From: a virus
Lineage: Duplodnaviria; Caudoviricetes
Strand: one strand, 5' to 3'
DNA: 54,584 bases
IMG/VR virus record: IMGVR_UViG_3300032226_000620
Coordinates: 1-54,584 of that record
Within the stretch, counting starts at the first letter, position 1, and each line of letters begins with the position of its first letter. Made by a program: the position numbers and the translations under genes. Under the pieces are notes generated by a model. It searched no databases and was not told the DNA's origin. It was given only the letters and a program-made list of their open reading frames with translations. Shown here one piece after another: positions 11,039-39,527 of the stretch.

Positions 11039-11791
11039 ATGATATCAGAGTCTACTGAGTTTGGAATTTTAGGTTATGGATATGTTGGTCGAGCTACACA
11101 TTTTGGTTTGCTCAAAAATCAACCGACTGTGGTGCATGACCCTATTATAAACACATCAAAAGAAAATCTAAAAAACTCAAAATATATTTTTATTTGTATT
11201 CCTACCCCCACACACGACGATGTGAAAATTTTAATTAATGAAATACAATCGTTAATTAATCAAAACCCCAAGACACAGATAATCATACGAAGCACTTTAC
11301 CTATTGGTACTTGTGACAGTATCGAGCAACAATTGGGAATAAAAGTGTTATACATTCCTGAATTTTTAAGAGAACGGTTTTGGGAAGAAGACTCGCTTGC
11401 TAGGCCATTGATAGTCGGACATAACAATGCGTCAATCCCTCAATGGTTATTAGATGAAGAAATTGATCAATGTTCTACCGTAGAAGCTGAGATGGTTAAA
11501 ATGTTTTCTAATAATTTTGCCGTGATGAGAATTGCATTTGCCAATCTATTTTATGATTTATCTCAACAGGTTGGTGCAGATTACGATCAAATTAAAAAAA
11601 TGTACTTCCAAGTAGCAAAAAATCAAACATATATGGAAGTACCGGGTCACGATGGTACCAGAGGGTTTGGTGGAAAATGTTTGCCCAAAGATCTTGATTT
11701 TATCATAGATTCTCTAGACTGTTATAATATCGATAATGACTGGTTTAAAAATATACGAGAACTAAACAAACAATGGCAAACAAAGTTTTAA
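11039..11791 (+). CDS. UDP-glucose/GDP-mannose dehydrogenase family protein (short form)
   Basis: GYGYVG, ICIPTP, IIRST, PEFLRE, EAEMVKMFSN, GFGGKCLPKD. Confidence 0.85.
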   Translation: MISESTEFGILGYGYVGRATHFGLLKNQPTVVHDPIINTSKENLKNSKYIFICIPTPTHDDVKILINEIQSLINQNPKTQIIIRSTLPIGTCDSIEQQLGIKVLYIPEFLRERFWEEDSLARPLIVGHNNASIPQWLLDEEIDQCSTVEAEMVKMFSNNFAVMRIAFANLFYDLSQQVGADYDQIKKMYFQVAKNQTYMEVPGHDGTRGFGGKCLPKDLDFIIDSLDCYNIDNDWFKNIRELNKQWQTKF

Positions 11792-12645
11792 TTACCGGAG
11801 CTGCCGGACTTATTGGACGAGAATTATGCAAGCAACTATCTTCAAAATTCTCAGTTACCGGTATTGATAATAATTTTAGATATCCGGACTATCGACCAGA
11901 TTGCAATTTCATACAACAAAATTTGATAGATTATTTAAAATCAGCCAAGAATGATTTTGATTATGTATTTCATATGAGTGCAATTAACGGAACCAAATAT
12001 TTTTATGAAATTCCAAATCAACTAATAGACAATAATGTGTCTTGTGATCTTGCGGTGTTTGAGTTCATGCGTAGCAATACCAATAGCAAATTAATATATG
12101 CCAGTAGTAGCGAAGTTGTAGCAGGAACTAATGAATTTCCCACTCACGAAATTAACGACATCGCTATTAATGATATACACAATCCTAGATGGAGTTATAG
12201 GTTAGGAAAAGTCTTGGGAGAAAATTATCTAATGAATAGCAATATAAATTTTTTAATCATTAGATTTTTTAATGTATTTGGTAAAGATTCCGGAAGCGGT
12301 CATTTTGTTCGAGATATATTGGACAAAATAGTCAACGATGATTATACTCTAATTGGAGCAGACGAAACACGATCATTTTGCAGGGTTGAAGACGCAGTCG
12401 ATGCAGTAATTAATATATGTGACAAGGTGTCAAAGGAAATTATTAATGTTGGAAGCGAAGAAGAAATAACTGTTTTGTCAGCAGCATCGATGATTGCTCA
12501 ATATAAAAATAAAAATGTAACATGGAATACTGTTCCCGGAAAACAAGGTAGCGTTACAAGACGAAAACCGTCGTTGGATAAACTATTAAAATATTACCCA
12601 ACGTTTAGTCCTATGTCTTTTAAGGATGCAGTTAAAGATTTATGA
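11773..12645 (+). CDS. NAD-dependent nucleotide-sugar epimerase/dehydratase (UDP-GlcA decarboxylase-like)
   Basis: ITGAAGLIG, YASSSEV, PRWSYRLGK (YxxxK), RFFNVFG, ETRSF. Confidence 0.85.
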   Translation: MANKVLITGAAGLIGRELCKQLSSKFSVTGIDNNFRYPDYRPDCNFIQQNLIDYLKSAKNDFDYVFHMSAINGTKYFYEIPNQLIDNNVSCDLAVFEFMRSNTNSKLIYASSSEVVAGTNEFPTHEINDIAINDIHNPRWSYRLGKVLGENYLMNSNINFLIIRFFNVFGKDSGSGHFVRDILDKIVNDDYTLIGADETRSFCRVEDAVDAVINICDKVSKEIINVGSEEEITVLSAASMIAQYKNKNVTWNTVPGKQGSVTRRKPSLDKLLKYYPTFSPMSFKDAVKDL

Positions 12646-13637
12646 AAAATCAATTTCAAGATATACCTTTTCAAAACATAGTTAGGTTTGGTCAACGCAC
12701 CATGTTGGACCGGCCACTGTTTTCTACCAGTTGGATACTGGGTAGATTTTGTAACTATAATTGTAGTTACTGCTGGCCGTATGCCAGATCAAATCAGATA
12801 GATCATTTAGATCTAAAAGTTTACACCAATGCCATAGACGAAATCAAACGACAAGCAAGACGAAATGGATTTACACAATTTCATTGGAGTTTCAGTGGCG
12901 GCGAACCTACTGCCTATAAACAGTTGCCTAATTTAGTTAAGCATTTAGATGAAACGGAAAGTAGTTATCAAAGTATCCATATGACTACTAACTTATCACC
13001 TGGATCAAAATGGTGGAGCACTTGGTGCGCTAATACCGCATTGTTACAACGCCGTAGTATAACAGCTAGCTTTCATGATGAGTTCGCTCAAGAACAAGAG
13101 TTTGGAGATAAATGTTTACAGTTACAGTATGAGCTAGTTCATGTAACAGTTAATCAAGTAATGGTGCCTGAAAAATTCTACGAACTATACAATAGGATGG
13201 AACGATTGCATAGTCGTGGAATCAATGTAACACTTAAACCTCAAAGTAATCCAACAGCCAGCGGCATAGTAGACGGATACACCGAAGAAATGATCTCCTT
13301 AATGCAAACAGGATTTCCTCAAAAATTACAAGGTGAAGAGATATATCAGATAGCGTTATACGATGATAATAATACTGAATATCTTTTTGATCAAGCTGAA
13401 AGATTTAATGCTTTTGGATTTAACAAATTTCAAAGTTGGAGTTGCAATAGTGGTTATCAGAGTTTAATAATACGAGGAAACGAAGTTAAACGATCTTATA
13501 GTTGCCACGATGCACCATTAGGTACTTTGACCGAAGGGTTTAGTTTGATTTGTAATCCAAGAATATGTGTTACACCGAGTTGTGTTAGTTCGGCAGATAG
13601 TAAGATACCTAAAAGAAAGATAATTTATGTTAGATAA
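12642..13637 (+). CDS. radical SAM protein with C-terminal Cys-rich (twitch/SPASM-like) domain
   Basis: CNYNCSYC, SGGEPT, C-terminal CNSG...C...CxxxxC. Confidence 0.9.
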   Translation: MKNQFQDIPFQNIVRFGQRTMLDRPLFSTSWILGRFCNYNCSYCWPYARSNQIDHLDLKVYTNAIDEIKRQARRNGFTQFHWSFSGGEPTAYKQLPNLVKHLDETESSYQSIHMTTNLSPGSKWWSTWCANTALLQRRSITASFHDEFAQEQEFGDKCLQLQYELVHVTVNQVMVPEKFYELYNRMERLHSRGINVTLKPQSNPTASGIVDGYTEEMISLMQTGFPQKLQGEEIYQIALYDDNNTEYLFDQAERFNAFGFNKFQSWSCNSGYQSLIIRGNEVKRSYSCHDAPLGTLTEGFSLICNPRICVTPSCVSSADSKIPKRKIIYVR

Positions 13638-14406
13638 GTTCTTACCTTTTAAAATAGACAATCATCTAAAGAAAAATAATTTTATACCTATTGATTCTTT
13701 TGACAGGGTAGGAGATTGGTCTGGATCAGATACCCGAGAACTCTATAGAAAAAATTTAAAAACACAGCCTCAGGATTGGTATTACAGAATCAATCCTGTA
13801 AAATATACCAATAATTCTAAAGGATATAGAACAGCAGAATTTGATAAAATAAAATGGGCAGAATCGATTGTAATATTTGGTTGCTCTAATGTATACGGAG
13901 TAGGTGTCGATGATCCTCATACACTGAGTCAACAGCTAGAAAACATTTTACAGATACCAGTTATAAATCTAGGACAAGGTGGAACATCCATAAACTTTAA
14001 TCTACATAATTCTGTAATGTTAGCTGACGGGTACCCAACACCAAAAGCGGTAATAATGGGTTGGCCAAGCTATGATAGATGTGTGTCTTACAACAGAACC
14101 GGAGTAGACAACTACGGATCTTGGAATTTTGAAAAAAATAATTATATGGATCTATGGACCAAAGACAAATACAATCCAAGAGCCAATGCAGTTATGGCCC
14201 AGAAAATTTTTCAACTGATATGGAAAAATCGAACAGCGACATATGAATACTCCTTTGATTCGGGTACCGCAGAATTGTTGGGTTTCGATAGAACCTTTGA
14301 AAAAATCAAAAACATCGACTTTGCCAGAGATCTACTTCATCCCGGACCCGATGCTATTAGAAAGACCGCGGAAATTATATCTGCTTCTTTGCAAAATAAA
14401 ATTTGA
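13627..14406 (+). CDS. SGNH/GDSL-like protein
   Basis: IFGCSNVYG, INLGQGG, RDLLHPG blocks. Confidence 0.6.
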   Translation: MLDKFLPFKIDNHLKKNNFIPIDSFDRVGDWSGSDTRELYRKNLKTQPQDWYYRINPVKYTNNSKGYRTAEFDKIKWAESIVIFGCSNVYGVGVDDPHTLSQQLENILQIPVINLGQGGTSINFNLHNSVMLADGYPTPKAVIMGWPSYDRCVSYNRTGVDNYGSWNFEKNNYMDLWTKDKYNPRANAVMAQKIFQLIWKNRTATYEYSFDSGTAELLGFDRTFEKIKNIDFARDLLHPGPDAIRKTAEIISASLQNKI

Positions 14407-15386
14407 AAATGTATAAATTAAATCAGATCCGAGATATTCACTTAGAAATTACCAGCAAGTGTCAAGCTCGTTGCCCTATGTGTCCTCGTCGAATTAATGG
14501 AGGAATAATTAATCCTTTGCTAAAATTAAATGACATAGGATTAACAACATTCAAAAATTGGTTCTCTGTTGATTTTATTCAACAATTAGATAGTTTGTTT
14601 ATGTGCGGTAATTTAGGCGATCCTATAATAGCTCAAGACTGTTTAGAAATATTTCAGTATCTCCGAGAAATAAATCCTACAATTCGATTAAGTATGCATA
14701 CCAACGGCAGTGCAAGGAATGATGAATGGTGGAAAGCATTAGCCCTTACAAAAGTTAAGGTAACATTTGGCATAGACGGACTAGACGATACCCATCACTT
14801 GTACCGAATTGGCACGGACTATTACAAGATATTACACAATGCTAAAACATTTATCGACACAGGCGGTAACGCCGAATGGCATATGCTGGTGTTTAAACAC
14901 AACGAACATCAGATAAAAGATTGCGAGAATCTTAGTATAGAATTAGGATTTAGTAAATTTACAATCAAGCATACTAGTAGATTTAAAGACGGAAAATTTA
15001 ATGTTCTTGACGAACAAGGCAAAACTATTAATATATTGTACCCTACAGAACTTAGCAAAACACTTACTTCAAAAGTAATAAACCTAGTGCCGTCTGAAAT
15101 AAAATGTAAAGCACAAAAATACAAACAATTATATATTAGTGCAGATGGCGGAGTTAGCCCCTGTTGTTGGTTAGATCTATCTTGGCAATTACCAAATCAA
15201 GATAATAGAATAAATTATATGGATACCATAGAAGCATTTCCTAATTTAAATAAAACTTCATTACAGGAAATATTCAACTCGGGGTTCTTTAACAAAATAC
15301 AAGATACCTGGATAGATAAACCATTGATAGAATGCAATAAACAATGTGGGCACTTTGATAAATTAGGAGAACAATTTGTTAATTGA
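14403..15386 (+). CDS. radical SAM/SPASM-twitch protein
   Basis: CQARCPMC, GNLGDP, HTNG, ISADGGVSPCC, CNKQC. Confidence 0.9.
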   Translation: MKMYKLNQIRDIHLEITSKCQARCPMCPRRINGGIINPLLKLNDIGLTTFKNWFSVDFIQQLDSLFMCGNLGDPIIAQDCLEIFQYLREINPTIRLSMHTNGSARNDEWWKALALTKVKVTFGIDGLDDTHHLYRIGTDYYKILHNAKTFIDTGGNAEWHMLVFKHNEHQIKDCENLSIELGFSKFTIKHTSRFKDGKFNVLDEQGKTINILYPTELSKTLTSKVINLVPSEIKCKAQKYKQLYISADGGVSPCCWLDLSWQLPNQDNRINYMDTIEAFPNLNKTSLQEIFNSGFFNKIQDTWIDKPLIECNKQCGHFDKLGEQFVN

Positions 15387-15972
15387 TACCGAACATCTAC
15401 ATCATTGGATGCAGGCGATAAGGCAAAGCCCGGACCCCATAAGAACTATGGATGCATTTTGGAGCGGCCAACTCAATAGTAAAGAATGGTTAATTACAAA
15501 CTTGCACAAGCACGTGAATAAATTTGTAACTGTAGACATCTACGGAGGTTGGGTCGGGGTATTAGCCAGCATGTTATTTCAGAGCGATGTGCCTGTGTCA
15601 AATATACGCAGTATAGATATAGATCCAATCTGTGAGCCTATTGCTACTACAATGAATAAAATTGAAGAAATGGTAGGAAGATTTAGGGCAGTTACCGCAG
15701 ATATGTGTACCATCCGTAGCGATGCAGATGTCATAATCAATACTAGTTGCGAACACATTACTCAGGATCAATATGATCAGTGGATATCCGGAATGCCATA
15801 TAACAGTCTTTTTGTTTTACAAAGCAATAATTACAATATACCCGAGCATGTTCGAATTGCTAATAGTTTAGAAGAGTTTAAAGAACAAAGCCAACTTGAA
15901 AATATTTTGTATGCCGGTGAGTTAGATTTACCTTTATACAAAAGATTTATGATTATAGGAAAACAGAAATGA
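15376..15972 (+). CDS. class I SAM-dependent methyltransferase-like protein
   Basis: DIYGGWVG, SIDID, ADM, INTSCEH. Confidence 0.65.
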   Translation: MLIDTEHLHHWMQAIRQSPDPIRTMDAFWSGQLNSKEWLITNLHKHVNKFVTVDIYGGWVGVLASMLFQSDVPVSNIRSIDIDPICEPIATTMNKIEEMVGRFRAVTADMCTIRSDADVIINTSCEHITQDQYDQWISGMPYNSLFVLQSNNYNIPEHVRIANSLEEFKEQSQLENILYAGELDLPLYKRFMIIGKQK

Positions 15973-16565
15973 TTGAGAAAAAACTCTTAGACTTCCCTCG
16001 CATCAGTGTATTTGAAGATGTAATTCCATTAGATGTATGTGATGCTATGATTACCAAATATAAAAATGCGATGAATCCTAATGCTGGTATAGAAAGTCGT
16101 GAACAAACTTATGGGCAAATAACAGAAGAAGTAGAACAGCGTAGCATTAGTTGGGATACCGATCCTGCCGATAGACAATATTTTAAATCATTGTTGGCCG
16201 AAACCGTAGGAATACCCGAGAGTCATGTAGAAGCAGGTGACATATATTTTTACGAAGTAGGTCAATATTTTGGTCTACATCATGATTATCCATACAATCC
16301 TACTGTAGTGCCGTACTACAGCAAAGGCGGCGATCGAAAGGCAACTGCTATTTTTTGGTTCAATGATGACTATCAAGGCGGTCGTTGTACATTTCCCGAA
16401 CTTGGAGTAACAGTTGAACCCAAGAAGGGAGGCATTATGTACTTTGAATACGACTATCCAGACGAATTAGTAAACAAGTCGACCATACATGAGTCTTTGC
16501 CTGTTACTCAAGGAAGAAAATGGATCGCGGCGTTCTTTATGTCCAACGGCCCTAGAATAGAATGA
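15969..16565 (+). CDS. prolyl 4-hydroxylase-like Fe(II)/2OG oxygenase
   Basis: YEVGQYFGLHHD, DRKAT, GGRCTFP, HESLPVTQGRKW. Confidence 0.85.
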   Translation: MIEKKLLDFPRISVFEDVIPLDVCDAMITKYKNAMNPNAGIESREQTYGQITEEVEQRSISWDTDPADRQYFKSLLAETVGIPESHVEAGDIYFYEVGQYFGLHHDYPYNPTVVPYYSKGGDRKATAIFWFNDDYQGGRCTFPELGVTVEPKKGGIMYFEYDYPDELVNKSTIHESLPVTQGRKWIAAFFMSNGPRIE

Positions 16566-17236
16566 ACACAGAAACCTGGACACCTTTCTTTAAATATAAC
16601 GATGATGGTGTATCGTGCCTTGCCCAGCAGACCTATGAACCTTTAATTAGTCCTGATCGAAAGATTTTTTGTGCAAACTACGATTGGCAAAACCTTTATC
16701 AAAGAAAATATGAGACTCGTGAACTATACACAGCAGATGTTTGTAGTTGGTTTTTTGAAAATGAAGTAGATCATTTATTAAAATTCCAAAACAAGTCTTA
16801 TACTCCTACTGTTCTAGACATTGATCGTAAAAATAAAAAAATATTTTTTGAATGGAACGGTTACACATTTAATGAAATGTTATTTAAAGGAGATGCTGTT
16901 GAGTGGGAGGAATCTCTAAAGTATATAATGTTAGATCTCTATGAATCAGGAACTTATAAACTTACTATGTATCCGCATTGTCATTACTTAGACAAATACG
17001 GAGTGATGAAAACCATCGATTGGTACGGGTGTGTTCCGGTAAAGTTTCCGTTTATTGAAGCAAAATACATGGATGCAATTGTACACGAAACAGCTAGATT
17101 TAGACTTGATGAAACAGAAAGAACCAATACTCATTATAATTTAGAATTGATGTACAAACAGTCTATGTGCAATCATGTTAGATGGGCAGGTAAAACACTA
17201 AGGTATATCTATGACGAAATACATTGGGACAACTAA
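16562..17236 (+). CDS. protein-kinase/phosphotransferase-like fold protein with a degenerate catalytic loop
   Basis: FENEV..L..F, P.VLDID, IFFEW, YKLTMYP...MKTIDWYG; paralog of 28671..29366. Confidence 0.45.
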   Translation: MNTETWTPFFKYNDDGVSCLAQQTYEPLISPDRKIFCANYDWQNLYQRKYETRELYTADVCSWFFENEVDHLLKFQNKSYTPTVLDIDRKNKKIFFEWNGYTFNEMLFKGDAVEWEESLKYIMLDLYESGTYKLTMYPHCHYLDKYGVMKTIDWYGCVPVKFPFIEAKYMDAIVHETARFRLDETERTNTHYNLELMYKQSMCNHVRWAGKTLRYIYDEIHWDN

Positions 17237-17786
17237 AAATTTAATCGATTGGGATTCAGTTATCAAAAAGATTATTCCTCGAACGGGCGATTATAATTCT
17301 GTTAAATCTGTAGTGGATCGTTCAGAGTCTAATTGGGCCGACGATCCTCCACTATTGGGGGCATACCACGAGATTATAGGTACCTGGCAAAAGGCCAACT
17401 ACGATCTAAATAATATCGAATGGTGGGACTACTATCCAGAACAGCACTATGATCTAGATATTCAAAATAAATTTGCTGACATAGTTAATGCAGAACCATT
17501 GCGAGTGTTTGTTAGTGAAGTTATGCCAGGTCAGTGTGTTCCGTATCATTGGGATGTAGAGGATCATGAAGAAGAGTGGCTAAAGTTAGGGCAGCTAGTA
17601 CGGTATGTTTGTTTCATAGACAAGCCTCAGTTCGGACATGTCTTTATATTAGAACAAGAATGTTTTTATAATGTTGAACAACATCTGATATATCAATGGG
17701 ACCACTATAGAAATCATCATGCAGGAACAAACTGCGGAACCGAACCTTATTATTTGTTTCACTTTTTAGGAAGGCCTAGAACATGA
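17211..17786 (+). CDS. AspH-like (Asp/Asn beta-hydroxylase) cupin oxygenase
   Basis: PGQCVPYHWD...HHAGTNCG (HxD...H triad). Confidence 0.7.
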   Translation: MTKYIGTTKNLIDWDSVIKKIIPRTGDYNSVKSVVDRSESNWADDPPLLGAYHEIIGTWQKANYDLNNIEWWDYYPEQHYDLDIQNKFADIVNAEPLRVFVSEVMPGQCVPYHWDVEDHEEEWLKLGQLVRYVCFIDKPQFGHVFILEQECFYNVEQHLIYQWDHYRNHHAGTNCGTEPYYLFHFLGRPRT

Positions 17787-18292
17787 TAACTTACGTTGAT
17801 ATCTGTCCGATTGATTGGTCACAATTAATAACTCACCTAGAAACTCAAAAACCATACATTGGTCCAAAACATAGAGCGGGAGACAATATTCCGGGATTAA
17901 AAGAAGTAACCGATATGTGGGAAAAATCAGGCTACGGATCTTCTGTGCAATGGGATATGTTTTATTCCGGTGAACACTTTGATAATAAAATTGTTGATCA
18001 GGTTGTTGAATGGACTGGCTTATCTTCATATACAAATGCTTGGGTAAGTAGAATACATCCGGGATATTTTGCGCCAGTTCATTGGGATGTACAGGACAAC
18101 GAACCATTACCGGACACTGTCAGATTTCACATACATATGAGTAAACCCCAGTTCGGACATATTTTTATTGTTGAAAATACCTGTCTGTATAATCAAGAAC
18201 AGGGGGCCACATATAAGTGGAGTGGTAGAAAACTATGGCATGCCGGTACCAACTGTGGACTAGTGCCTAAATACATTTTTAATATATGGTAA
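17783..18292 (+). CDS. AspH-like cupin oxygenase
   Basis: PGYFAPVHWD...WHAGTNCG; tandem paralog of the previous gene. Confidence 0.7.
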   Translation: MITYVDICPIDWSQLITHLETQKPYIGPKHRAGDNIPGLKEVTDMWEKSGYGSSVQWDMFYSGEHFDNKIVDQVVEWTGLSSYTNAWVSRIHPGYFAPVHWDVQDNEPLPDTVRFHIHMSKPQFGHIFIVENTCLYNQEQGATYKWSGRKLWHAGTNCGLVPKYIFNIW

Positions 18293-29366: not shown

Positions 29367-29393
29367 GCTAGTACTTATTAGATAAGTATGTGC
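29367..29393. promoter_or_regulatory. back-to-back late-type promoters (ATAAGTA)
   Basis: Minus strand ATAAGTACTAGC-ATG; plus strand ATAAGTATGTGC-ATG; nearly symmetric. Confidence 0.6.
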
Positions 29394-30703: not shown

Positions 30704-31458
30704 AAATAGGTTTTTTTGGTGACAGTTTTTGCATGGAAGCAAGTAACCCGCACAGCTGGTACTACAAATATGAAACTTTCATAAGACAAATTGAAAAACA
30801 CTACTCAGCAGAAATTGTAAATTTAGGAGTTGGAGGCAGTAGTTATTGGGATGTTATGCTAAAACAATTTCCACCGTATGCAACTAACTTACCGGATGTG
30901 TGTATATTTTGTTGGACTGATCCAAGTAGGATCTATCATCCTACTATAAGAAATATTGGTATATGGACTACGATGAAACGCAACTGGAAAGATATTCATT
31001 ATACACATCTCTTAAACTATAAAGAATTGCATGCCGCCAAAGAATATTTTATGTATTTGCATAACTGGGAGAAAAGCCAGAAAGAAGCAGTATCTGCATT
31101 TTATTATTATGATAGGGAAGTGCTAACAGCATTACAACATAAAACTAAAATTATACATTTGTGGAGTTTTGGTTCCACCATCAACTGGGAACAAGAAGAA
31201 TCCTGGTGTCCTAATAATATAAATTATGCATATAGATGGCAAACTGGCATAGAAATAAGACCTAGCCTAAAGTGTTTTAGTGCCATTGGGAGAAATACAA
31301 AAAACGATGACATGGCAGCAAATCATTTAGGCAGTTCGCTTAACAATAGGCTTGTTGCTGACATGATTATTGAAGCAATTGATAATCATTCTAACGGTCA
31401 ATTATTAATTAAAGATGCCATGTGGGAACAGTATCAAACAATTCGGCTCGCAAACTAA
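30700..31458 (+). CDS. SGNH/GDSL-like protein
   Basis: FFGDSF, NLGVGGSS, C-terminal NH. Confidence 0.65.
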   Translation: MKIGFFGDSFCMEASNPHSWYYKYETFIRQIEKHYSAEIVNLGVGGSSYWDVMLKQFPPYATNLPDVCIFCWTDPSRIYHPTIRNIGIWTTMKRNWKDIHYTHLLNYKELHAAKEYFMYLHNWEKSQKEAVSAFYYYDREVLTALQHKTKIIHLWSFGSTINWEQEESWCPNNINYAYRWQTGIEIRPSLKCFSAIGRNTKNDDMAANHLGSSLNNRLVADMIIEAIDNHSNGQLLIKDAMWEQYQTIRLAN

Positions 31459-32536
31459 AATAAACACTAGCATCCGGCATGGCAGATTGAATAGCATCTA
31501 CTAATACTTGCTGTTTGTACTTTCTATATTCTAAACTGTAAAAAAATACAGTACCTTCGTAATTAAAAATATTTGATAAGTTTATCAGCGTGTCTGGTAT
31601 GCTGATATCGATGTGATCTATTAAACTATCTTTGCCGAGCAAATCACATAACACAAACTTGAATTTAGGATAGCGAGCTTGCCAATAGTCTAACGATGCT
31701 TGGTTATAATCGTACATAATAACGGTGGCGTCCGATTCTAAATAATTAGTGAACCACATACCGCTAGCAGGTGTCACAATCTGTTTATATTTTTTAATAG
31801 GCAAGTCTACAGTTTCTGTATTATCAGTATGTACAAATGTATTGCGACAATAGTTTAACCTATGATACGCCCATCCTAACTGTTTGTAAAAATCTTTAGG
31901 ACTTTCTGGATAGAAGTGAATTTTATTATTTCTTACACTGTCATCAAAAACTACCACTGGAAGATTGTTATCAAATGCCTTACTTAATATATTCCAGCCG
32001 TGGCACCTGTGTTGATAATCTGTTAATATTGTTCCAGCAACGATTGCTCTAGGAGTATAGTCATCATGATAATTATTAGTAGTTCGGTATGGTGCAACTT
32101 GTACGTGTTGAGACCCGAGTTCTTGTTTTCCAATAGCTGGCTGTCCTATCATATTATAATGAAATAAATTTATAACATAGCATTGATGGTGTAACTCGTA
32201 ATATGCATCTTTTCTATCTAAAATGTGCCCAGCAACTAAAAAATCTACTTGTATCAGAGTTTCTATTGCTTCAAAGAATTTAGATCCATTTGTAAACTCT
32301 GTGCCTGTGCTTAATACCACAGCATGAGTGTATCCTAGATTTGCTACATGTTTGAGTAATACATCTTCATCGATCCATTGATAAACTGGATAGCCTTTAT
32401 TATAGACATTGGCTAATACTCCGTCTGCTTGATTTTTAATTAGTTCACAAATACCGCTAGAATAGCTTCGTGTGTTATCTACAAAACAAAATGCAATATT
32501 GGTACGCCATTTGGGATTAAATTCTATCACATTCAT
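31409..32536 (-). CDS. hypothetical protein (possible GT-A N-terminus and methyltransferase-like C-terminus)
   Basis: Long ORF; start at ATG 32536 (ATGA overlap); GHILD..YYELH.QC, MYDYNQASL, NLSNIF. Confidence 0.6.
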   Translation of the reverse strand: MNVIEFNPKWRTNIAFCFVDNTRSYSSGICELIKNQADGVLANVYNKGYPVYQWIDEDVLLKHVANLGYTHAVVLSTGTEFTNGSKFFEAIETLIQVDFLVAGHILDRKDAYYELHHQCYVINLFHYNMIGQPAIGKQELGSQHVQVAPYRTTNNYHDDYTPRAIVAGTILTDYQHRCHGWNILSKAFDNNLPVVVFDDSVRNNKIHFYPESPKDFYKQLGWAYHRLNYCRNTFVHTDNTETVDLPIKKYKQIVTPASGMWFTNYLESDATVIMYDYNQASLDYWQARYPKFKFVLCDLLGKDSLIDHIDISIPDTLINLSNIFNYEGTVFFYSLEYRKYKQQVLVDAIQSAMPDASVYFSLRAELFDTVPTWHL

Positions 32537-33009
32537 TTTAGTGTGCTTACTTGGCAAGTATAAAAATTTTCAGCACTGGCGTTAGAAGCCCAGTGTTCAA
32601 CTTTGTGATCAAAGAACCACACATCGCCGGCTTTCCAATTGGTTAGTACTAAATCGTCTAGCTGTACTATGTGTCCTAGTTTCCAATCTTCCAACATAAT
32701 AAGATATCTAATGCAATTTTCTTCGGGTACATTTTTTTTAGTTTTAAGCATATAGAAGTGATCTCGATGAACTGGGATTACTTCTTTTGGTTCAAGACAT
32801 AACCAGCACACACTTCCGTGTTGAACGTTTAGTGTGTCATAGTAGCGCATGAACTCAGGTACTTCCTCGTTGAATGTTTGTTTGAGCATCGTACCTTCGT
32901 AATTACTATGTGGGACGGCATGTGGTGCTATAGGTGTTTCATACTGAAATTTAAAAGCAGCTAAATCTTTTTTCCAAAACGGATAAATTTTTCCAATAGT
33001 GCCTTTCAT
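32533..33009 (-). CDS. AspH-like cupin oxygenase
   Basis: PKEVIPVHRDH...RYLIMLEDW..GH...EHWASN; start at ATG 33009 (ATGA overlap). Confidence 0.7.
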   Translation of the reverse strand: MKGTIGKIYPFWKKDLAAFKFQYETPIAPHAVPHSNYEGTMLKQTFNEEVPEFMRYYDTLNVQHGSVCWLCLEPKEVIPVHRDHFYMLKTKKNVPEENCIRYLIMLEDWKLGHIVQLDDLVLTNWKAGDVWFFDHKVEHWASNASAENFYTCQVSTLK

Positions 33010-34064
33010 CGGAAGTAATCCTCTAATGAGCCCGTACGCCGCAAGTCCAACGTAGCACAATGGAAGCCCCCGCTTAATGTTGCCGCGTGTCGCATCGGCA
33101 ACGGAATAACTGTAAACTTGCGTTTTTCTAATTCTCGTACTAGTGATGTTTGTGTGTTGCCTACACATACTGTATTAGGATTGACACTTAGTATATTCAT
33201 ACCAATATACGGACTACACGGACTAACGCTGCCAGGTCCACTAGCTGGCGGAATAATAGCAGTAACATCTTGGAAGTAAATCTTGTCCCACGATTCAAAT
33301 AACTTGGGACAGTTGTCTGGATTGACTCGAGTACTGTTAAGCAATACCAGTCCCGGTCGTAATGGAATGATGGTGCTGTCCATGTGTGCAAAACTGTAAA
33401 TGTGTTCTGCGGCATGCACACGATATCCACGACGCTCTAGAGTATTGCGTAACCATTGTAATCCTAAATGATTGCCTGTGTTACTAATTTGGAATAGGAT
33501 ATCTTTGCCTAACCTAATACAATTAGGAGCATCAAACACAGGCTCAAGGTTAGTTAAACTTGGCTGACTTAAATCTGTAAAATTATAGCTGGCATCTGTA
33601 AGGATTGGCTTAGGAGCTGCAATCCACTCTACTCCATCTTTGACTGCATCTAGCATAATATCGTGATAGGCACGAGTTTCAAAATATCTGGCGCGACACG
33701 GACTCGGGGTCTCGATCATTAGATTGTCTAAAGGTAGTAACAAGTCTCGCGGACACCAAGTATACCAACCGGTTGTTGACCATTCGGGCGTACTAAATTG
33801 TTTAGCGGTATCTTGTATTTTAGGACGATGTACTTTAACATGGCATTGCTCTAGTGCAGCGACCAATGCCTCCATATCCTCGTTTGCTTCATCTATTAAC
33901 CATTGAGGATATTGTCCAGCTAATGGTTTAATTTTTTCAATATCGTAGTTAGTATAGCACATGCTCATAGTACTGGCATCTACTGTAGGTACACGAGCAT
34001 TGTCTGCTCTTCCTACAATAATTTCTTCTAACGGATCCCAGTGGTTGTGGCTTGATATTTTCAT
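33006..34064 (-). CDS. L-arginine-dependent amidinotransferase (StrB1/glycine amidinotransferase family)
   Basis: SHNHWDPLEEIIVG, CPRD, FDAPN, HMDST, GGFHCATLDLRR (Asp-His-Cys triad). Confidence 0.9.
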   Translation of the reverse strand: MKISSHNHWDPLEEIIVGRADNARVPTVDASTMSMCYTNYDIEKIKPLAGQYPQWLIDEANEDMEALVAALEQCHVKVHRPKIQDTAKQFSTPEWSTTGWYTWCPRDLLLPLDNLMIETPSPCRARYFETRAYHDIMLDAVKDGVEWIAAPKPILTDASYNFTDLSQPSLTNLEPVFDAPNCIRLGKDILFQISNTGNHLGLQWLRNTLERRGYRVHAAEHIYSFAHMDSTIIPLRPGLVLLNSTRVNPDNCPKLFESWDKIYFQDVTAIIPPASGPGSVSPCSPYIGMNILSVNPNTVCVGNTQTSLVRELEKRKFTVIPLPMRHAATLSGGFHCATLDLRRTGSLEDYFR

Positions 34065-35125
34065 TGTTGTATCTTTAATAAATGTGAAAATCCTGTTTGC
34101 TCAAACCAATAAGATTTTTCACTGTCGGTTATGTTTAAGTTACTGATAAATTTTTGGTTATCTTCTGCAAGAGAAATAAACACACTATAATTATGCTCGA
34201 CATCTTTTTGTATGTCTTCTTTATGCTGTTTATAATTTTCCATAAAGTATTCGGTATTAGCTACCACCGCGTCTAAACGATCTTCTTCATTTTGTATAAA
34301 TGCATAATCTTTGATCAACATGTATTCTTCAAATGTTCGCAAACCAAAACTTTTGATGTAGTTAAATTGTTCAGGATAGCCAGCAAACACAAAGGGATGT
34401 TTCATTGCAATAGCTCGCCAAGTCTTCTCGGTTAAGAATTTATAATTAGTTGCTGGATCATAAGCATTACCTTCGCTTATAACACTAAGCGCAGTGTCTA
34501 CAAATACACAAGGATCAATCCATGCTAAATTGTTAATCCATGGCTGGTTGTATGTATCTTGTGTATCCCATTCTTGCCTTGATGTTTTAGAATAGTTTTT
34601 TGATTTTTCGTAGATGTCATCAACGCGGCGATCACAATCTTCTAAAAATTTTGAATATTGTTTATCTGTGTAATGTGACATAGCATTACGGCACCATTCT
34701 TTATCACTATCGACCCATGGAGGGAAAAAAGTCCATATTGAATTGTCTAACATTTTCTTATCGTAAAACTTACCTAATAACTTAATACGATTTATCCTGC
34801 TAGGAACACCCCCAAGAAATAAAAATGATTCGCTATTACTATTCCAGGAAGGTAGTTGTATATTTTTAAAACTATGATAAACGATACTATGATAATAGTT
34901 AAAATACAAATGATTAGGATGTTCACACATACCTGCAATTAGTTTGACTTCTATGTCTACTGGAAATGTTTCTGGATCTCTATACAAAAATCCGTCCATT
35001 AACAGTAGCCCGTAAGCAATATTATATCCTTGTTCTTTGGCACATTCTAATTGTTTAACAATGTGTCTATATCGTTCTTGCTCGTCGACATGCAATATTT
35101 CAAAATTAATTATTTTACCTTTCAT
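34061..35125 (-). CDS. putative glycosyltransferase (GT10-like C-terminal motif)
   Basis: SVISEG...FLTEKTWRAI..KHPFVFAG resembles the GT10 EN...YxTEK..AL...P motif. Confidence 0.5.
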   Translation of the reverse strand: MKGKIINFEILHVDEQERYRHIVKQLECAKEQGYNIAYGLLLMDGFLYRDPETFPVDIEVKLIAGMCEHPNHLYFNYYHSIVYHSFKNIQLPSWNSNSESFLFLGGVPSRINRIKLLGKFYDKKMLDNSIWTFFPPWVDSDKEWCRNAMSHYTDKQYSKFLEDCDRRVDDIYEKSKNYSKTSRQEWDTQDTYNQPWINNLAWIDPCVFVDTALSVISEGNAYDPATNYKFLTEKTWRAIAMKHPFVFAGYPEQFNYIKSFGLRTFEEYMLIKDYAFIQNEEDRLDAVVANTEYFMENYKQHKEDIQKDVEHNYSVFISLAEDNQKFISNLNITDSEKSYWFEQTGFSHLLKIQQ

Positions 35126-35982
35126 AACAGCTTATTAAAACTCAATCGATTGGTGCTAGTTCCCCTATTGTACTCTTTCCATTCATCTCCACCGATGCCA
35201 AATAATATTGTATTACTAGGAACAACATTGTACTGTAAACATAAATCTAGTTGTCGATGTTTATATTTGTTATACACAAAATCCGGTCCAAATTTAGATA
35301 ATAGTTCTAGACCTAGTTGCGGCCCTAATCTATTGGTGTATCCTATTTTATTTGCAACAAACAAACTGTCGTCGTCGTCTAGTCGTGTTAACCGCATACC
35401 TATCCTTGCATGTGCTACAGGAAATATCTTACTTAAACTAAATGTAATGTCAGTAATGCAGGGATGATTAAAATTAAAGTCAATATCAGAACATATTCCA
35501 AAATAAGCACAATCAACAAGTACAGGGATTCCCTTTTCGGTGCATTGCTCTAATAATGTTTCGTGTAATTGATGCTTGCCGCCAGTATCGCTAAATGGTA
35601 AACTGATTACTACAGCATCATTAGGGTCTAGACACTCGTCATCTAACCACAACCAGTTAGGCCAACTATTCCTCCAGACTAGTCTATGGTATACATACTC
35701 GCCTCGAAAGCAGCGGAACCTGCGTGTACAATTTTTAATATAAAATTTATCAAATGATTCTGTGGTACCGTTACTGTAACATGCAAACGGAAAATGTTCC
35801 AACCCTTGTACATTATTCAAGGTAGTTTTAGAAATCCAGTTTAAATATTCTTGACAAAATTCTTCCGATAAATCAAGAGTTAGATCTAACTTAGTTCTAT
35901 CTATTACAGTTAATGTTTCAGAATCTTTAATAGCCATAGATTCTCCGAACATCATTTGTCTTTTGTCATTCGGGGGCGACAT
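35122..35982 (-). CDS. PLP-dependent enzyme (fold type I, aminotransferase-like)
   Basis: NGTTESF, ISLPFS, LVDCAY, FSLSKIF..ARIG; AAGGAGG RBS before ATG 35982. Confidence 0.75.
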   Translation of the reverse strand: MSPPNDKRQMMFGESMAIKDSETLTVIDRTKLDLTLDLSEEFCQEYLNWISKTTLNNVQGLEHFPFACYSNGTTESFDKFYIKNCTRRFRCFRGEYVYHRLVWRNSWPNWLWLDDECLDPNDAVVISLPFSDTGGKHQLHETLLEQCTEKGIPVLVDCAYFGICSDIDFNFNHPCITDITFSLSKIFPVAHARIGMRLTRLDDDDSLFVANKIGYTNRLGPQLGLELLSKFGPDFVYNKYKHRQLDLCLQYNVVPSNTILFGIGGDEWKEYNRGTSTNRLSFNKLL

Positions 35983-36520
35983 TAAACGCCTCCTTATTAA
36001 CATTGAGGAATATTGTTATACGGGTTTCTAGTGTATCGTTCATGCCGCCATGCGGCAATTGGCCATCAAATACCAAAGGAACCCTTGCTTTATTTTTAAT
36101 TAATTTATAGTCAACTATTGAGTAGCCGTGATCGTATAATGGAATTAGAATGTTATAACACCGACCAGTATTATCATATTCGGGGCGTGTGTCATCATCT
36201 ACGTGTATTGGTATGAGTGAGGCTTTAAATAAAACATTAATTGCAAATCGTTCTACACCCTTCATAATTTTGGCATGATCCATGATGTGTTTTGCAATGT
36301 CTTCTAACCCTTGATTGAATGTGTAATATGCATCTATATCATATGGATTCACTATAATACTTTTCCAGTTTATAGATGTGCCAACATTTTTCTCTCCAAT
36401 ATCAACCCAAAAATCTGAAACATCATGTTTCATCAATTCTTCTACATACTCAACAAGTTTTGGAATCTTATGGTTGTCAACATAAGACTCGGGAGGAAGT
36501 ATCATTGGTCGATCCATCAT
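35966..36520 (-). CDS. AspH-like cupin oxygenase
   Basis: IPIHVDD...FDGQLPHGGMN...RITI. Confidence 0.7.
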   Translation of the reverse strand: MMDRPMILPPESYVDNHKIPKLVEYVEELMKHDVSDFWVDIGEKNVGTSINWKSIIVNPYDIDAYYTFNQGLEDIAKHIMDHAKIMKGVERFAINVLFKASLIPIHVDDDTRPEYDNTGRCYNILIPLYDHGYSIVDYKLIKNKARVPLVFDGQLPHGGMNDTLETRITIFLNVNKEAFNVAPE

Positions 36521-36534
36521 CTACCAACGGCTTA

Positions 36535-37053
36535 TTAGTTAATGAATCGTGATGAATCTACTATCATGGTAATCCATATATGAGTTTGATTGGAATTGTT
36601 AATTGTGCTTCGATACACTTCATGGTCAAAAATAATAGGCGACCCTTTTACAGAAACCGATGTTGTGTTATCAATAACATGTAAACCGTGTGTGGTCACA
36701 GGCACAATTACATTATAGCTAGGAACCGTTCCAGACGGAATTGGATCTCCTTGATGGACTGGTATAGATGAATTTGGATTTAAAAAATTAACAAAAATTC
36801 TATCTACACCTTCTATGTTTCTACTATACGCAGTAATCGGCTGTACTAATTGCTCTAAATCATCGCTAATAACAGATTCGCCTGTGATGTCATATATCAC
36901 TACAGCAGAATAATTTGACGCTATGCCTTCATCTTTAAGACCTATATCAACTAGATGTGTTGAAATGGGTTGGTTACAAAAATTTTCAACTAATTCAATT
37001 AATGAAGGTAGTTTAGCAAGATCTAAGTATGAGTTGGATTCGAGTATTTTCAT
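36535..37053 (-). CDS. AspH-like cupin protein with degenerate metal ligands
   Basis: LNPNSSIPVHQGD...FDHEVYRSTINNS; paralog of the previous gene lacking the distal His. Confidence 0.55.
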   Translation of the reverse strand: MKILESNSYLDLAKLPSLIELVENFCNQPISTHLVDIGLKDEGIASNYSAVVIYDITGESVISDDLEQLVQPITAYSRNIEGVDRIFVNFLNPNSSIPVHQGDPIPSGTVPSYNVIVPVTTHGLHVIDNTTSVSVKGSPIIFDHEVYRSTINNSNQTHIWITMIVDSSRFIN

Positions 37054-37845: not shown

Positions 37846-39289
37846 GACTATCACACGAAATTTTATTAGTGATAATTTCATCTTTACTGATATACAAGAC
37901 GACTCTAAGAAAACTTATAACAAACAGTCTCTAATAGAAAAAATAAATTATTGGAAATACATTTTAAAATATCAGTATAATGCAGTGTCAAAAGAGTCTA
38001 TCCTTATAGGCCTGCAGGTGGTTGACATAAACTATTTTGCAATCATCATTGCCGCTGCTGAGTTGAGTCTTAGAATTGTTGTGGTAGATTATAATCGAAC
38101 TGATAAATTTGAAAATATTGACTATACTGATCCAAAAACTAAAGCACTTGCTCCCATCGATATTTTCTTGCACGACTTTACTGATGCAGCATTAGAATCT
38201 AATAGAGGTTATGCTAAATTTGTATTTTTTAAGAAAATGTCAAACAGGACCTACAGCACAAAGGATTGTTTTAATTTTCAAATTAATTCAACACTATATG
38301 AAAAGTTATCAACCCTGCAGCCAGATCCTTCTGATATATTATTTAGAGTAACTAGCAGCGGAACAACCGATGCACCTAAAGTGATCGAACACTCGCATGA
38401 ATTTATTTTTGAAATTTCTCAAAGAAACAGTAAAAACTATTCTGGCATAGCATTACATGTCAGTAATCTAAATCACGGTGCTAGTGCATCTGTAACACTG
38501 TTACCATTGCTTGCTAGCAATCGTGTCACTAGACACTTATTTTACGATAGCGGTAACGTTGAATCAATAGATGGACTGATTCGACATTTAGAAAATTACA
38601 AAGATGATCTAGGTTATCTATCATTTCCTTATCCATTTCTCATTGACAAGTTCATAGAAATAAGTAGAGAAAAAAATATTCGATGGCCTAAATTGGATTT
38701 GATTACCTTATCGTATATTCTGCCAAGTGCTAAACTTGCAGTAAGAGATGGAATTTTTAAAAGCATAACTAGTATTTTTGGATCTAATGAAACCCTAGGA
38801 CCGTTGTTTATAAATAGATCCGACCAAAGTGTTTGGGATATTGATCCTAAAAATTTCACTAAACCTGACGATTTCTATAATATTGAATTATCTAAAGAAG
38901 GCAAAATAACTGTTACTGTGCCAGTTTATAACAAGAAAATCGTAACCAATGACTATTTTGAAAAGCAGGGAGAAATTTTTATTCATCGAGGTCGTTCAGA
39001 CATGTTTAGAATCAATGGCGAAACTTTGAATCTCAAATTCATCAACGACTACAACAGCACGAACACTAACACATATATTGTAGTAGATACAGTAAATCAT
39101 TGCCTATACCTTGCTTGTTGGCAAGATCTTGCTTTAGAAAAAATAAATCAAATCAAACAAGAAATAGAAGATAAGTTTGAAAGAATCAAGATTACCAAAG
39201 TAGATCGTTTAGACAAAAGCAATTTTTATTACGGAATAAAAATAGACAATGAGCTTTTGAGAGAATATTTCAGGACCTATAATGTTTGA
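37838..39289 (+). CDS. adenylate-forming (AMP-binding/ANL) enzyme
   Basis: TSSGTTDAPK P-loop, FGSNET, TND, GRSD motifs; start at ATG 37838. Confidence 0.75.
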   Translation: MSKTITRNFISDNFIFTDIQDDSKKTYNKQSLIEKINYWKYILKYQYNAVSKESILIGLQVVDINYFAIIIAAAELSLRIVVVDYNRTDKFENIDYTDPKTKALAPIDIFLHDFTDAALESNRGYAKFVFFKKMSNRTYSTKDCFNFQINSTLYEKLSTLQPDPSDILFRVTSSGTTDAPKVIEHSHEFIFEISQRNSKNYSGIALHVSNLNHGASASVTLLPLLASNRVTRHLFYDSGNVESIDGLIRHLENYKDDLGYLSFPYPFLIDKFIEISREKNIRWPKLDLITLSYILPSAKLAVRDGIFKSITSIFGSNETLGPLFINRSDQSVWDIDPKNFTKPDDFYNIELSKEGKITVTVPVYNKKIVTNDYFEKQGEIFIHRGRSDMFRINGETLNLKFINDYNSTNTNTYIVVDTVNHCLYLACWQDLALEKINQIKQEIEDKFERIKITKVDRLDKSNFYYGIKIDNELLREYFRTYNV

Positions 39290-39527
39290 CAATCATTTAA
39301 ACAAGAGTCGCGTTACCTATTTTCAACATCTAAGATGGGCCATAGTTGCAGGTATCAGATTAATATGGGCAGGAATTGCCAGTATTATTCATGGAGTTTG
39401 CCCTAGATTGTTTGATCAAGTTGCTCCAAGAACAATAATCGATATCTTTTACGGACACCTTAAAAATCATCCCAACCAAGATTATAAACAAATAATCTCG
39501 GAAGCTGAGAAAAAATCTAAATTTTAA
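39282..39527 (+). CDS. DUF6356-like small protein
   Basis: H.....TYFQH...A.......A.IIHG..P.LF pattern. Confidence 0.6.
   Translation: MFDNHLNKSRVTYFQHLRWAIVAGIRLIWAGIASIIHGVCPRLFDQVAPRTIIDIFYGHLKNHPNQDYKQIISEAEKKSKF

Follow-up and report, generated by a model that had tools for sequence, protein, structure and literature searches.

An island of radical SAM and cupin-like genes beside the tail fibre genes of a freshwater T4-like phage: a possible glycan-tailoring locus

Overview of the island

Radical S-adenosylmethionine (SAM) enzymes are rare in phages. Nine genes for such enzymes, together with about nine for cupin-like proteins, are found in one island of 36 open reading frames (ORFs) at positions 11,039-39,527 of the virus record IMGVR_UViG_3300032226_000620. 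On comparative grounds this island may be a hypervariable glycan-tailoring locus, equivalent in a phage to the O-antigen or capsule cluster of a bacterium, placed in the tail fibre (host recognition) region. We hold this reading with about even confidence. It appears the best one because of the genes found with the island's homologues in bacteria and cultured phages, the sugar genes in and near it, and a shuffling of genes beside the fibres that is like that of O-antigen clusters. Confidence goes no higher because no glycosyltransferase or exporter was recognised in the island, the bacterial loci are few and the matches to proteins of known structure (PDB) are generic. The same context points to a glycan as a more probable substrate than a peptide, DNA or tRNA.

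The whole IMG/VR record, 54,584 bases, was analysed and is called the window here. CheckV puts its completeness at about 15%, so that the genome would measure roughly 350 kb if the estimate holds. The window is that share of a large freshwater T4-like phage, and the island, at 28-43 kb, would make up roughly a tenth of the estimated genome in a widespread freshwater phage lineage. A nucleotide search of 50,697 cultured phage records returned no match for the window, and the flank genes have distant protein kin in jumbo phages such as PA5oct. The T4-type major capsid protein Gp23 was found (285-328 bits) in three of the five related IMG/VR records searched, which had been reached via the island. 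Near-identical DNA is present in 20 sequencing runs among those listed, from 14 studies, and the labelled ones are freshwater or lake metagenomes. The nearest relatives of the KdsA-like gene in the left flank are alphaproteobacterial, including Pelagibacteraceae (60-67% identity), which may offer a weak lead to Alphaproteobacteria as hosts.

An earlier note on this DNA, made from the sequence alone, had described about 34 contiguous and overlap-coupled tailoring genes. Indeed, the coding fraction of the island is 0.998 with six strand switches, and, with every gene given its longest ORF, 28 of its 29 pairs of neighbours on the same strand overlap (Table 1). In line with the note, Pfam called no replication or packaging genes inside the island, though many ORFs are without a Pfam call, and found no polyketide synthase (PKS) or non-ribosomal peptide synthetase (NRPS) among the island ORFs. 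The G+C content of the island is 0.34-0.39, below that of both flanks (0.40-0.42).

Radical SAM enzymes

The nine radical SAM genes of the earlier note all hold up. Each of the ORFs 12642, 14403, 18286, 19668, 20623, 21692, 22584, 26244 and 27704 (ORFs are named here by their first position) has a single CxxxCxxC motif and 8-15 Cys residues, and all nine pass the Pfam gathering cut-off of PF04055 (29.5 bits) with 30.3-52.5 bits. They form five groups, namely four paralogues referred to here as family X, two members of NF033640, one SPASM protein (14403) and the singletons 26244 and 27704. The additional twitch/SPASM-type Cys clusters noticed before are present in the first three of these groups. 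Alignment of family X (12642, 19668, 20623, 21692) reveals four further invariant Cys residues in the C-terminal part. The radical SAM cluster motif of the family begins as early as residue 24-37, which leaves no room for an N-terminal leader-binding domain.

The NF033640 pair, 18286 and 22584, scores 409 and 318 bits against a cut-off of 170 bits and covers profile positions 1-397 of 398, whereas the other seven island radical SAM proteins reach 23-63 bits and are not members. Both have an N-terminal four-Cys auxiliary-cluster (twitch) domain with all four Cys invariant (C22, C41, C97 and C100 in 18286, in addition to CxxxCxxC). The SPASM profile PF13186 gave 34.3 bits in 14403, 35.8 bits in 22584 and 20.8 bits, below its cut-off, in 18286. 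By sequence, these extra Cys sets place 14403, the NF033640 pair and family X in the SPASM/twitch subgroup with predicted auxiliary 4Fe-4S clusters.

None of the island radical SAM proteins reaches the cut-off of an NCBIfam housekeeping equivalog; 21692, for instance, has 54.5 bits to NF038073 (STM4011 family), far under the cut-off of 200. Campylobacter phages CP21 and CPt10 encode distant relatives of this protein (with CP21_027, tblastn identity is 22-23% across 96% of the query), and 26244 is 31% identical to radical SAM ORF306 of cyanophage S-SCSM2R (tblastn E=8e-14). Database homologues of 22584 number 5576 at E<=1e-5; the 120 listed all come from metagenomes, on contigs of up to 344 kb, and bear a generic name or none. 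When profiles were compared with the PDB, the N-terminal domain of the NF033640 family matched the auxiliary-cluster domain of BtrN, a twitch enzyme that oxidises sugars, and cytosylglucuronate decarboxylase was also among the PDB matches. The best matches of 14403 were Tes, NifB, MoaA and anSME, all weak. A tenth radical SAM gene, B12-binding-type-like, is located outside the island among tRNA genes (48403-49905, minus strand); its best NCBIfam matches are PhpK-type P-methyltransferases at 44 bits, far under cut-off.

Cupins and 2-oxoglutarate oxygenases

About ten cupins with an HxD...H motif had been proposed for the island. Nine ORFs carry an HxD/E...H motif, whereas 36535 lacks it, and three pass a Pfam cut-off: 15969 (PF13640), 32533 and 37078 (both PF05118), with 24542 and 30209 slightly under. 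For six of the nine (15969, 17211, 17783, 24542, 29388 and 30209) homologues conserve the motif; in 32533, 35966 and 37078 it is based on one or two sequences each. Profile comparison with hhalign joins 17211, 17783, 30209, 32533 and 24542 into one AspH-like family. As far as sequence goes, the cupins may instead be sugar epimerases or isomerases. ORF 29388 had no match in the PDB, Pfam or cultured phages. Its AlphaFold model (pLDDT 76.1, pTM 0.79) has a strand-rich C-terminal half, and the HRD segment is modelled with low confidence.

Conservation in related viruses

A scan of IMG/VR with 18286 revealed 152 stretches encoding relatives, and the best 80 of these, with 67-92% identity, were kept. 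To be counted in a locus, a gene had to have a homologue with 60% query coverage or more within 10 kb of the 18286 relative. The counts are rough, since contig ends truncate many loci and paralogues cross-match. Among the best 80 loci, homologues were found of 22584 in 79, 19668 in 77, 21692 in 76, 12642 in 75, 15376 in 74, 14403 in 72 and 20623 in 63, and about half of the 80 also hold 16562, 17211, 17783, 23821 and 24542. Clustering across related phages had been set beforehand as a test of the earlier note, and clustering is what was found: the sub-lineages keep the gene content of the island and shuffle the gene order.

The 186-kb relative G001 has homologues, at no less than 60% coverage, of 31 of the 36 island ORFs, 25 of them at 40% identity or more; 11039, 13627, 36535, 37730 and 39282 are without a homologue there. 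Its island measures about 43 kb and includes 15 ORFs with CxxxCxxC. On one side it is flanked by large ORFs of structural size, one of which resembles the fibre-like protein 3775-4902, and on the other by a homologue of the fibre-like protein 39524-41974. The numbers of PF04055 matches per related record are 16, 15, 9, 6 and 7. In addition, an amidinotransferase gene adjacent to a cupin gene is common to the window, G001 and S-SCSM2R. The island is thus more than a chance assembly; it is a conserved phage-borne block, and a tailoring block beside fibre genes, as the earlier note had it. Its families are almost all virus-only in database and Atlas matches, and most can be called viral dark matter.

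Radical SAM enzymes are oxygen-sensitive, which would fit a set of unrelated auxiliary genes that boost host metabolism at low oxygen. Such a benefit has already been proposed in print for phages CP220 and CPt10, in which an exchangeable cluster of five radical SAM genes and a putative glycine amidinotransferase gene is described in the available text (Timms et al., 2010; PMC2853527). For the island, the chance that this explanation applies seems slight indeed: the genes form a block that stays and moves as one in as many as 80 related loci, no gene reaches a housekeeping-equivalog cut-off and the families are almost all virus-only.

Homologues in bacteria and cultured phages

In bacteria NF033640 is rare. 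It was over its cut-off in none of 14 control genomes, in two of 401 sampled Pseudomonadota and in three of 401 sampled Bacteroidota. In one proteobacterial genome four tandem copies are located in an O-polysaccharide cluster of the ABC-transporter type, which also holds a WbsX glycosyltransferase, a TylF sugar O-methyltransferase, Wzm and RmlD. The same cluster encodes an 854-residue protein (L191:8579-11143, minus strand) in which Wzt (ABC_tran and the carbohydrate-binding Wzt_C) is fused to an N-terminal-twitch radical SAM protein. At the second proteobacterial locus a family 2 glycosyltransferase (GT2) gene and an epimerase gene of the short-chain dehydrogenase/reductase (SDR) type stand beside the gene. 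Four loci of Bacteroidota were fetched and three annotated; they have arrays of 2-4 copies, accompanied by a methyltransferase-GT2 fusion, GDSL proteins, a PhyH dioxygenase and a weak GT11 match. These companion genes are of the same kinds as the genes of the phage island. An alignment of the marker family yielded no conserved stretch by which bacterial loci could be sought, and a search for such loci with a single protein of the family returned only one 28-residue fragment.

Sugar genes are also neighbours of island homologues in cultured phages. In Campylobacter phage CP220 the amidinotransferase homologue gp086 is surrounded by five radical SAM genes, after which come genes for two nucleotide-diphospho-sugar transferases and a PAP2 phosphatase. 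In S-SCSM2R the neighbours of ORF309, the homologue of 33006, include five glycosyltransferases, an aminotransferase of the DegT/AHBA type and RmlC, as well as a radical SAM protein 31% identical to 26244 and an AspH-like 2-oxoglutarate (2OG) oxygenase 33% identical to 32533. The N-terminal-twitch family itself has matches in cultured phages only in RsoM2USA, Vibrio phages K566 and K567 and a marine fragment. In K566 (L099:14866-21602) four N-terminal-twitch-like radical SAM genes stand consecutively and adjoin a gene for a PagP-like lipid A acyltransferase.

Possible product of the island

The sugar genes that support a glycan are the dehydrogenase and epimerase genes in the island and the KdsA-like and PHROG-level glycosyltransferase genes in its flank, together with a DegT match within the island of the relative G003. 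In a glycan pathway, activated sugars would be supplied by the short UDP-sugar dehydrogenase, the SDR epimerase and reductases and the flanking KdsA-like enzyme, and would then be rewritten by the large set of tailoring enzymes. The twitch/SPASM radical SAM enzymes would take hydrogen atoms from unactivated carbons, leading to oxidation, epimerisation, deoxygenation, C-methylation or C-C chemistry, and the cupin and 2OG enzymes would carry out hydroxylation or isomerisation. Amino, guanidino or amidino groups may be added by the aminotransferase-like, amidinotransferase-like and PP-loop enzymes, and methyl and acyl decorations by the methyltransferase-like, SGNH-like and ANL-like enzymes. The finished product would be exposed at a surface, carried by virion proteins (the neighbouring fibres, for example) or by the envelope polysaccharide of the cell under infection. 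Shuffling and paralogue turnover among related phages would give structural variety under arms-race selection. A chemical coat on a macromolecule had been suggested before. A surface macromolecule still appears the best reading, with the context in favour of a glycan, but the virion as its target was not borne out.

Several observations weigh against a glycan. Canonical GT2 (PF00535) was found in none of five records (the window and four related ones), and DegT in one of the five only. Pfam recognised no flippase, polymerase, Wzx/Wzy, Wzm/Wzt, ABC exporter or sugar nucleotidyltransferase in the island. The sole glycosyltransferase match, 769-1587, is at the PHROG level and lies outside it. ORF 34061, considered as a candidate glycosyltransferase, was unconfirmed, with no Pfam or PDB match. 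The bacterial context of NF033640 amounts to five annotated loci, and at one of them, in Bacteroidota (L204), no glycosyltransferase was among the neighbours tested. The PDB matches of the radical SAM subfamilies are generic only (MoaA, SkfB, Tes and viperin, with BtrN for the twitch domain). Moreover, twitch/SPASM enzymes act on peptides, lipids and cofactors too, and AspH-family enzymes classically hydroxylate proteins or lipid A. A phage lacking export genes could use host machinery or act on proteins.

The mix of amidinotransferase, aminotransferase, SDR, twitch radical SAM, ANL and sugar dehydrogenase resembles pathways for aminocyclitol and nucleoside antibiotics. The island might accordingly direct the synthesis of a diffusible small molecule, either like an aminoglycoside or nucleoside antibiotic or a ribosomally synthesised and post-translationally modified peptide (RiPP), released from the infected cell against competitors, the host or co-infecting phages. 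BtrN and cytosylglucuronate decarboxylase among the PDB matches are consistent with this, and so is the label 'antibiotic synthesis genes' that the available text on S-SCSM2R gives to a homologous trio of aminotransferase, amidinotransferase and radical SAM genes (PMC12801897). We nevertheless regard this explanation as improbable. No conserved short precursor-peptide ORF was found across the 80 loci and the island, as the earlier note had reported for the island; the top cluster was a tRNA-like element and the rest were unrelated small genes. On the 36 island ORFs Pfam recognised no RiPP recognition element (RRE) or PqqD domain, leader protease or exporter, of which divergent forms could be missed, and no self-resistance gene, PKS or NRPS. 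A surface structure also agrees better with a location between fibre genes and with shuffling of the O-antigen kind.

That same position can be read in another way, since fibre-like genes bound the island and PF05118 is a family of protein Asp/Asn hydroxylases. The direct substrates of the AspH-like hydroxylases and radical SAM enzymes would then be structural proteins, the repeat-rich fibres next to the island or others; Asn/Asp hydroxylation, epimerisation, methylation or cross-links, as made by proteusin-type maturases on peptides, would harden the fibres or vary receptor-binding surfaces. Many SPASM enzymes act on peptides according to the NCBIfam match lists, the 816-residue fibre-like protein 39524-41974 is rich in Gly, Thr, Val, Asn and Asp with short repeats, and the virion preparation of S-SCSM2R contained, according to the available text, a 2OG dioxygenase and a further amidinotransferase (PMC12801897). 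This fibre, however, has no Cys at all, so thioether chemistry is excluded, and against a peptide substrate stand both the early motif of family X and the Pfam result for the nine radical SAM ORFs, in none of which an RRE or PqqD domain was reported. Modification of virion proteins would also leave the sugar-nucleotide, amidinotransferase-like and aminotransferase-like enzymes unexplained, and the bacterial context of the family is one of polysaccharide clusters. On balance we find it as unlikely as a small molecule.

Guanine bases are replaced in Campylobacter phages that are rich in radical SAM genes, and nucleic acid has to be weighed as a substrate too: a 7-deazaguanine-type or other phage DNA base, or the phage's many tRNAs, might be hypermodified. 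QueD/PTPS is encoded in the left flank, the PP-loop protein 23821 has a QueC-like C-terminal motif, ThyX adjoins the island and the window has 14 tRNA genes. Among the 7-deazaguanine genes, however, QueD alone is over its cut-off, with QueC, QueE and FolE below theirs. TGT/DpdA was found in none of five records (the window and four related ones), all of which are fragments, so that its absence is unproven, and Rfam detected 14 tRNAs only and no riboswitch in the window. In addition, 9-16 radical SAM enzymes and about nine cupins far exceed any base-modification pathway known to us. Hypermodification of nucleic acid is therefore very improbable.

If the glycan-tailoring reading is correct, the island and its relatives would be a large reservoir of new carbohydrate radical chemistry, and the function of NF033640 and of several virus-only families would for the first time become approachable. 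The role of the hypervariable 'LPS gene' islands of T4-like aquatic phages could then be put to a direct test, since homologous sub-modules are present in cultured relatives (S-SCSM2R, CP220). A bolder form of it, to which we give only a modest chance, is a 'viral serotype locus': a set that shuffles like an O-antigen cluster, in which the twitch and family X arrays would perform undescribed radical chemistry on sugars or polysaccharides and the phage would coat its own fibres or capsid with the product. Virion surface chemistry, beyond fibre sequence, would in that case diversify against hosts, grazers and defences, and NF033640 would be a new tailoring step in bacterial O-polysaccharide synthesis, physically coupled to Wzt.

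Other genes of the island and its flanks

The UDP-sugar dehydrogenase and epimerase calls of the earlier note are confirmed by Pfam, and the dehydrogenase is a short form. ORF 11039 has the N-terminal and central domains with a GGKC catalytic motif and is without the C-terminal UDP-binding domain; it matches TIGR03026 with 103 bits (cut-off 189.8) over profile positions 70-296 of 413. This was the only ORF for which NCBIfam was informative among ten that do not encode radical SAM proteins. The amidinotransferase, pyridoxal phosphate (PLP) enzyme, QueC-like, SGNH, SDR and ANL calls are in part upheld, by sub-threshold Pfam matches (E 0.002-0.04) together with motifs. For the amidinotransferase 33006 there is also tblastn identity to phage homologues, 37% to an 'inosamine amidinotransferase' of S-SCSM2R and 30% to CP220 gp086 over 96% of the query. 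In contrast, the 'GT10-like' and 'kinase-like' calls of the note could not be verified, as no Pfam or PDB match was obtained.

The start of the PP-loop gene 23821-24621 is probably at 24504. Its product matches Pfam QueC at E=0.005 and PP-loop at E=0.06, both under cut-off, and the TilS N-terminal domain at E=0.002, with no PDB match. Profiles of the 29388, 16562, 15376, PP-loop and 34061 families gave nothing usable against PDB sequences. ORF 15376, a lead only, has Atlas feature matches to Methyltransf_31/NAS clusters (0.87-0.94) and no PDB or Pfam match. ORF 34061 has 192 homologues, and none of the 120 listed carries a Pfam domain. The PLP protein 35122 is 25% identical to a 'putative aminotransferase' of Pelagibacter phage Mosig. 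The ANL-like protein has no relative in IMG/VR, and an ANL-like gene and a DUF6356 gene are likewise adjacent in the Ralstonia jumbo phage RsoM2USA (L098:2396-4037).

Late-type promoters had been reported in the earlier note, and this was not supported. The T4 late promoter motif TATAAATA occurs in 3 copies where 6.8 are expected, and only two of the three precede a gene start, one of them 34-41 nt upstream of the start of the fibre-like gene 39524-41974. In the right flank the 14 tRNA genes form two arrays (44536-54231, minus strand). Among 65 ORFs of the window examined for stop codons there are 39 TAA, 21 TGA and 5 TAG, TAG being the rarest. Directly upstream of the island is a tRNA-like element (10826-10942, minus strand) with an 8-bp acceptor stem, a GGTTCGAAACC T arm, an ACCA end and a long insert. 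Its hairpin could present a UCCUAGG loop (possibly with anticodon CUA; fold z-score -2.2). It is kept in 20 related loci and called by neither ARAGORN nor Rfam. Nearby, a 63-residue Lys/Ala-rich ORF (10592-10783, minus strand) has the look of a DNA-binding protein of the histone or H-NS type and is kept in 7 related loci. Related phages have an IF-1 homologue near the island (L009:3151-3369, minus strand, and 18 other loci); the window is without one.

Table 1. Genes of the island and of its flanks, with the matches and motifs on which each call rests
Positions	Strand	Feature	Evidence
769-1587	-	Glycosyltransferase-like, left flank	phrog_1962
1550-2392	-	KdsA-like (Kdo-8-phosphate synthase), left flank	DAHP_synth_1 250 bits
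2592-3041	-	QueD/PTPS, left flank	PTPS 51 bits
3775-4902	-	Fibre-like protein, left flank	Tail-fibre PHROGs
11039-11791	+	Short nucleotide-sugar dehydrogenase, 250 aa	PF00984 59.4 bits, PF03721 41 bits
11773-12645	+	NAD-dependent sugar epimerase/dehydratase (SDR)	PF01370 105 bits
12642-13637	+	Radical SAM, family X paralogue 1	PF04055 41.3 bits; CNYNCSYC at residue 37
13627-14406	+	SGNH/GDSL-like (weak)	hhalign 92% probability to 30700-31458; no Pfam match at E<=0.01
14403-15386	+	Radical SAM with C-terminal SPASM	PF04055 30.3 bits, PF13186 34.3 bits
15376-15972	+	Class I methyltransferase-like Rossmann protein, lead only	Invariant GGWxG and DxDP motifs
15969-16565	+	2OG-Fe(II) oxygenase	PF13640 42.7 bits; conserved H104/H105, D106, H174
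16562-17236	+	Paralogue family of 28671	hhalign 99.7%; no Pfam or PDB match
17211-17786 and 17783-18292	+	AspH-like cupins, tandem pair	Mutual blastp 37% identity; conserved HxD...H
18286-19671	+	N-terminal-twitch radical SAM 1 (NF033640)	409 bits
19668-20645	+	Radical SAM, family X paralogue 2	PF04055 46.5 bits
20623-21717	-	Radical SAM, family X paralogue 3	PF04055 40.9 bits
21692-22591	-	Radical SAM, family X paralogue 4	PF04055 48.9 bits
22584-23888	-	N-terminal-twitch radical SAM 2 (NF033640)	318 bits
23821-24621	-	PP-loop ATPase, QueC-like C-terminal Cys motif	Invariant SGGxDS, TRSCEG, CxxCFWCxER
24542-25222	+	AspH-like cupin	PF05118 22.5 bits, cut-off 22.6; conserved H84, D86, H128
25215-25661 and 25658-26260	+	Short SDR-like tandem pair	blastp 33% mutual identity; weak adh_short/Epimerase N-terminal matches
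26244-27182	+	Radical SAM	PF04055 30.9 bits
27169-27720	-	Conserved protein, possible acyltransferase (weak)	FeeM E=0.029 only; homologue in 23 loci
27704-28735	-	Radical SAM	PF04055 52.5 bits
28671-29366	-	Paralogue family of 16562	hhalign 99.7%
29388-30209	+	Conserved protein with HRD...H	Motif conserved across homologues
30209-30703	+	AspH-like cupin	PF05118 19.9 bits, under cut-off; hhalign to 17211, 17783, 32533
30700-31458	+	SGNH/GDSL-like (weak)	PF13472 E=0.029; hhalign to 13627
31409-32557	-	Virus-only family protein	Atlas: viral clusters only; 49% identical homologue in G001
32533-33168	-	AspH-like cupin adjoining amidinotransferase	PF05118 24.7 bits, over cut-off
33006-34064	-	Amidinotransferase-like (pentein)	GGFHC C-terminus; Pfam ADI E=0.011
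34061-35125	-	Protein with SEG...TEK motif	No Pfam or PDB match; two copies in G001
35122-36003	-	Fold-type-I PLP aminotransferase-like	SLSK motif; Aminotran_1_2 E=0.04
35966-36520 and 36535-37053	-	Tandem paralogues (HVD...H in the first, second without motif)	blastp 30% identity
37078-37845	+	Asp/Asn beta-hydroxylase family protein	PF05118 34.3 bits
37730-39289	+	ANL-like adenylating enzyme	AMP-binding E=0.002, under cut-off
39282-39527	+	DUF6356 small protein	49 bits
39524-41974	-	Fibre-like protein bounding the island	Mtd_N domain PF18454 37.9 bits

Comparison with known systems

The earlier note had regarded the island as the best candidate for an undescribed system, which goes too far: modules of this kind are in print for CP220/CPt10, pelagimyophages, an environmental genome with 12 radical SAM genes and S-SCSM2R, none of them with a tested function assigned in the available texts. 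A literature search on NF033640 or N-terminal-twitch enzymes in phages and O-antigen clusters, and on phage RiPP clusters, retrieved nothing on the NF033640 family, most subscription journals being outside the search.

CP220, CPt10 and CP21 are T4-like, as is the phage of the window; they are myoviruses with 11-12 radical SAM genes, the available text giving 11 and 12 radical SAM proteins for CP220 and CPt10, respectively (Timms et al., 2010; PMC2853527). CP220 shares with the island an amidinotransferase homologous to 33006-34064, family X homologues at 22-23% identity occur among these phages, and the modules of this type are located near tail fibre, gp5 and QueD genes. They differ in being smaller (10-12 genes) and of low identity, and no N-terminal-twitch match came from them. 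CP220 also has two recognisable nucleotide-sugar transferases and a PAP2 phosphatase, with no cupin expansion annotated.

The host recognition cluster of pelagimyophages and cyanomyophages is described, in the available text, as a non-syntenic island of 34-45 kb extending from VrlC to gp14, which holds tail fibres, glycosyltransferases and genes of lipopolysaccharide (LPS) type and in which radical SAM cassettes set close relatives apart (Zaragoza-Solas et al., 2020; PMC7029224). Judged from the fibre genes at both ends in the window and in G001, the shuffled order and Gp23 in relatives, the likeness would lie in a large non-syntenic island in the structural region of T4-like aquatic phages, with fibres and with radical SAM cassettes that come and go; an Asp/Asn hydroxylase is a core gene of those phages as well. 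In contrast to the island, recognisable glycosyltransferases dominate in the host recognition clusters and radical SAM genes are few, and freshwater pelagimyophages are reported in that text to be without them (PMC7029224).

S-SCSM2R, which is cultured, has homologues of the amidinotransferase (37% identity), of the adjacent AspH-like oxygenase (33%) and of a radical SAM protein (31%), as well as KdsA, RmlC and epimerases, and 22 cell-wall-modification genes are listed in the available text (PMC12801897). It differs by a single radical SAM gene in the stretch, compared with nine, and by 13 annotated glycosyltransferases in the genome; it is a marine cyanophage with a genome of 244 kb. The bacterial O-polysaccharide clusters with NF033640 resemble the island in their tandem N-terminal-twitch paralogues accompanied by methyltransferases and SDR sugar enzymes. 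They also have Wzm/Wzt, RmlD and clear glycosyltransferases, none of which is recognisable in the phage island. A marine environmental viral genome, uncultured and T4-like, is likened by count alone: 12 radical SAM genes are reported in the context of Fe-S cluster supply, and the available text counts them without a cluster analysis (Nishimura et al., 2017; PMC5332604).

Taken together, the island is a much expanded form of a type of T4-like phage island that is in print and functionally unexplained. New are its scale, with 9-16 radical SAM genes and about nine cupin genes, its conservation over at least 152 environmental stretches, and the two dominant radical SAM families, one of them linked to O-polysaccharide clusters and to Wzt. 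Whether or not glycans are the substrate, it brings the scattered observations on CP220/CPt10, the pelagimyophage clusters and the environmental genome with 12 radical SAM genes into one frame.

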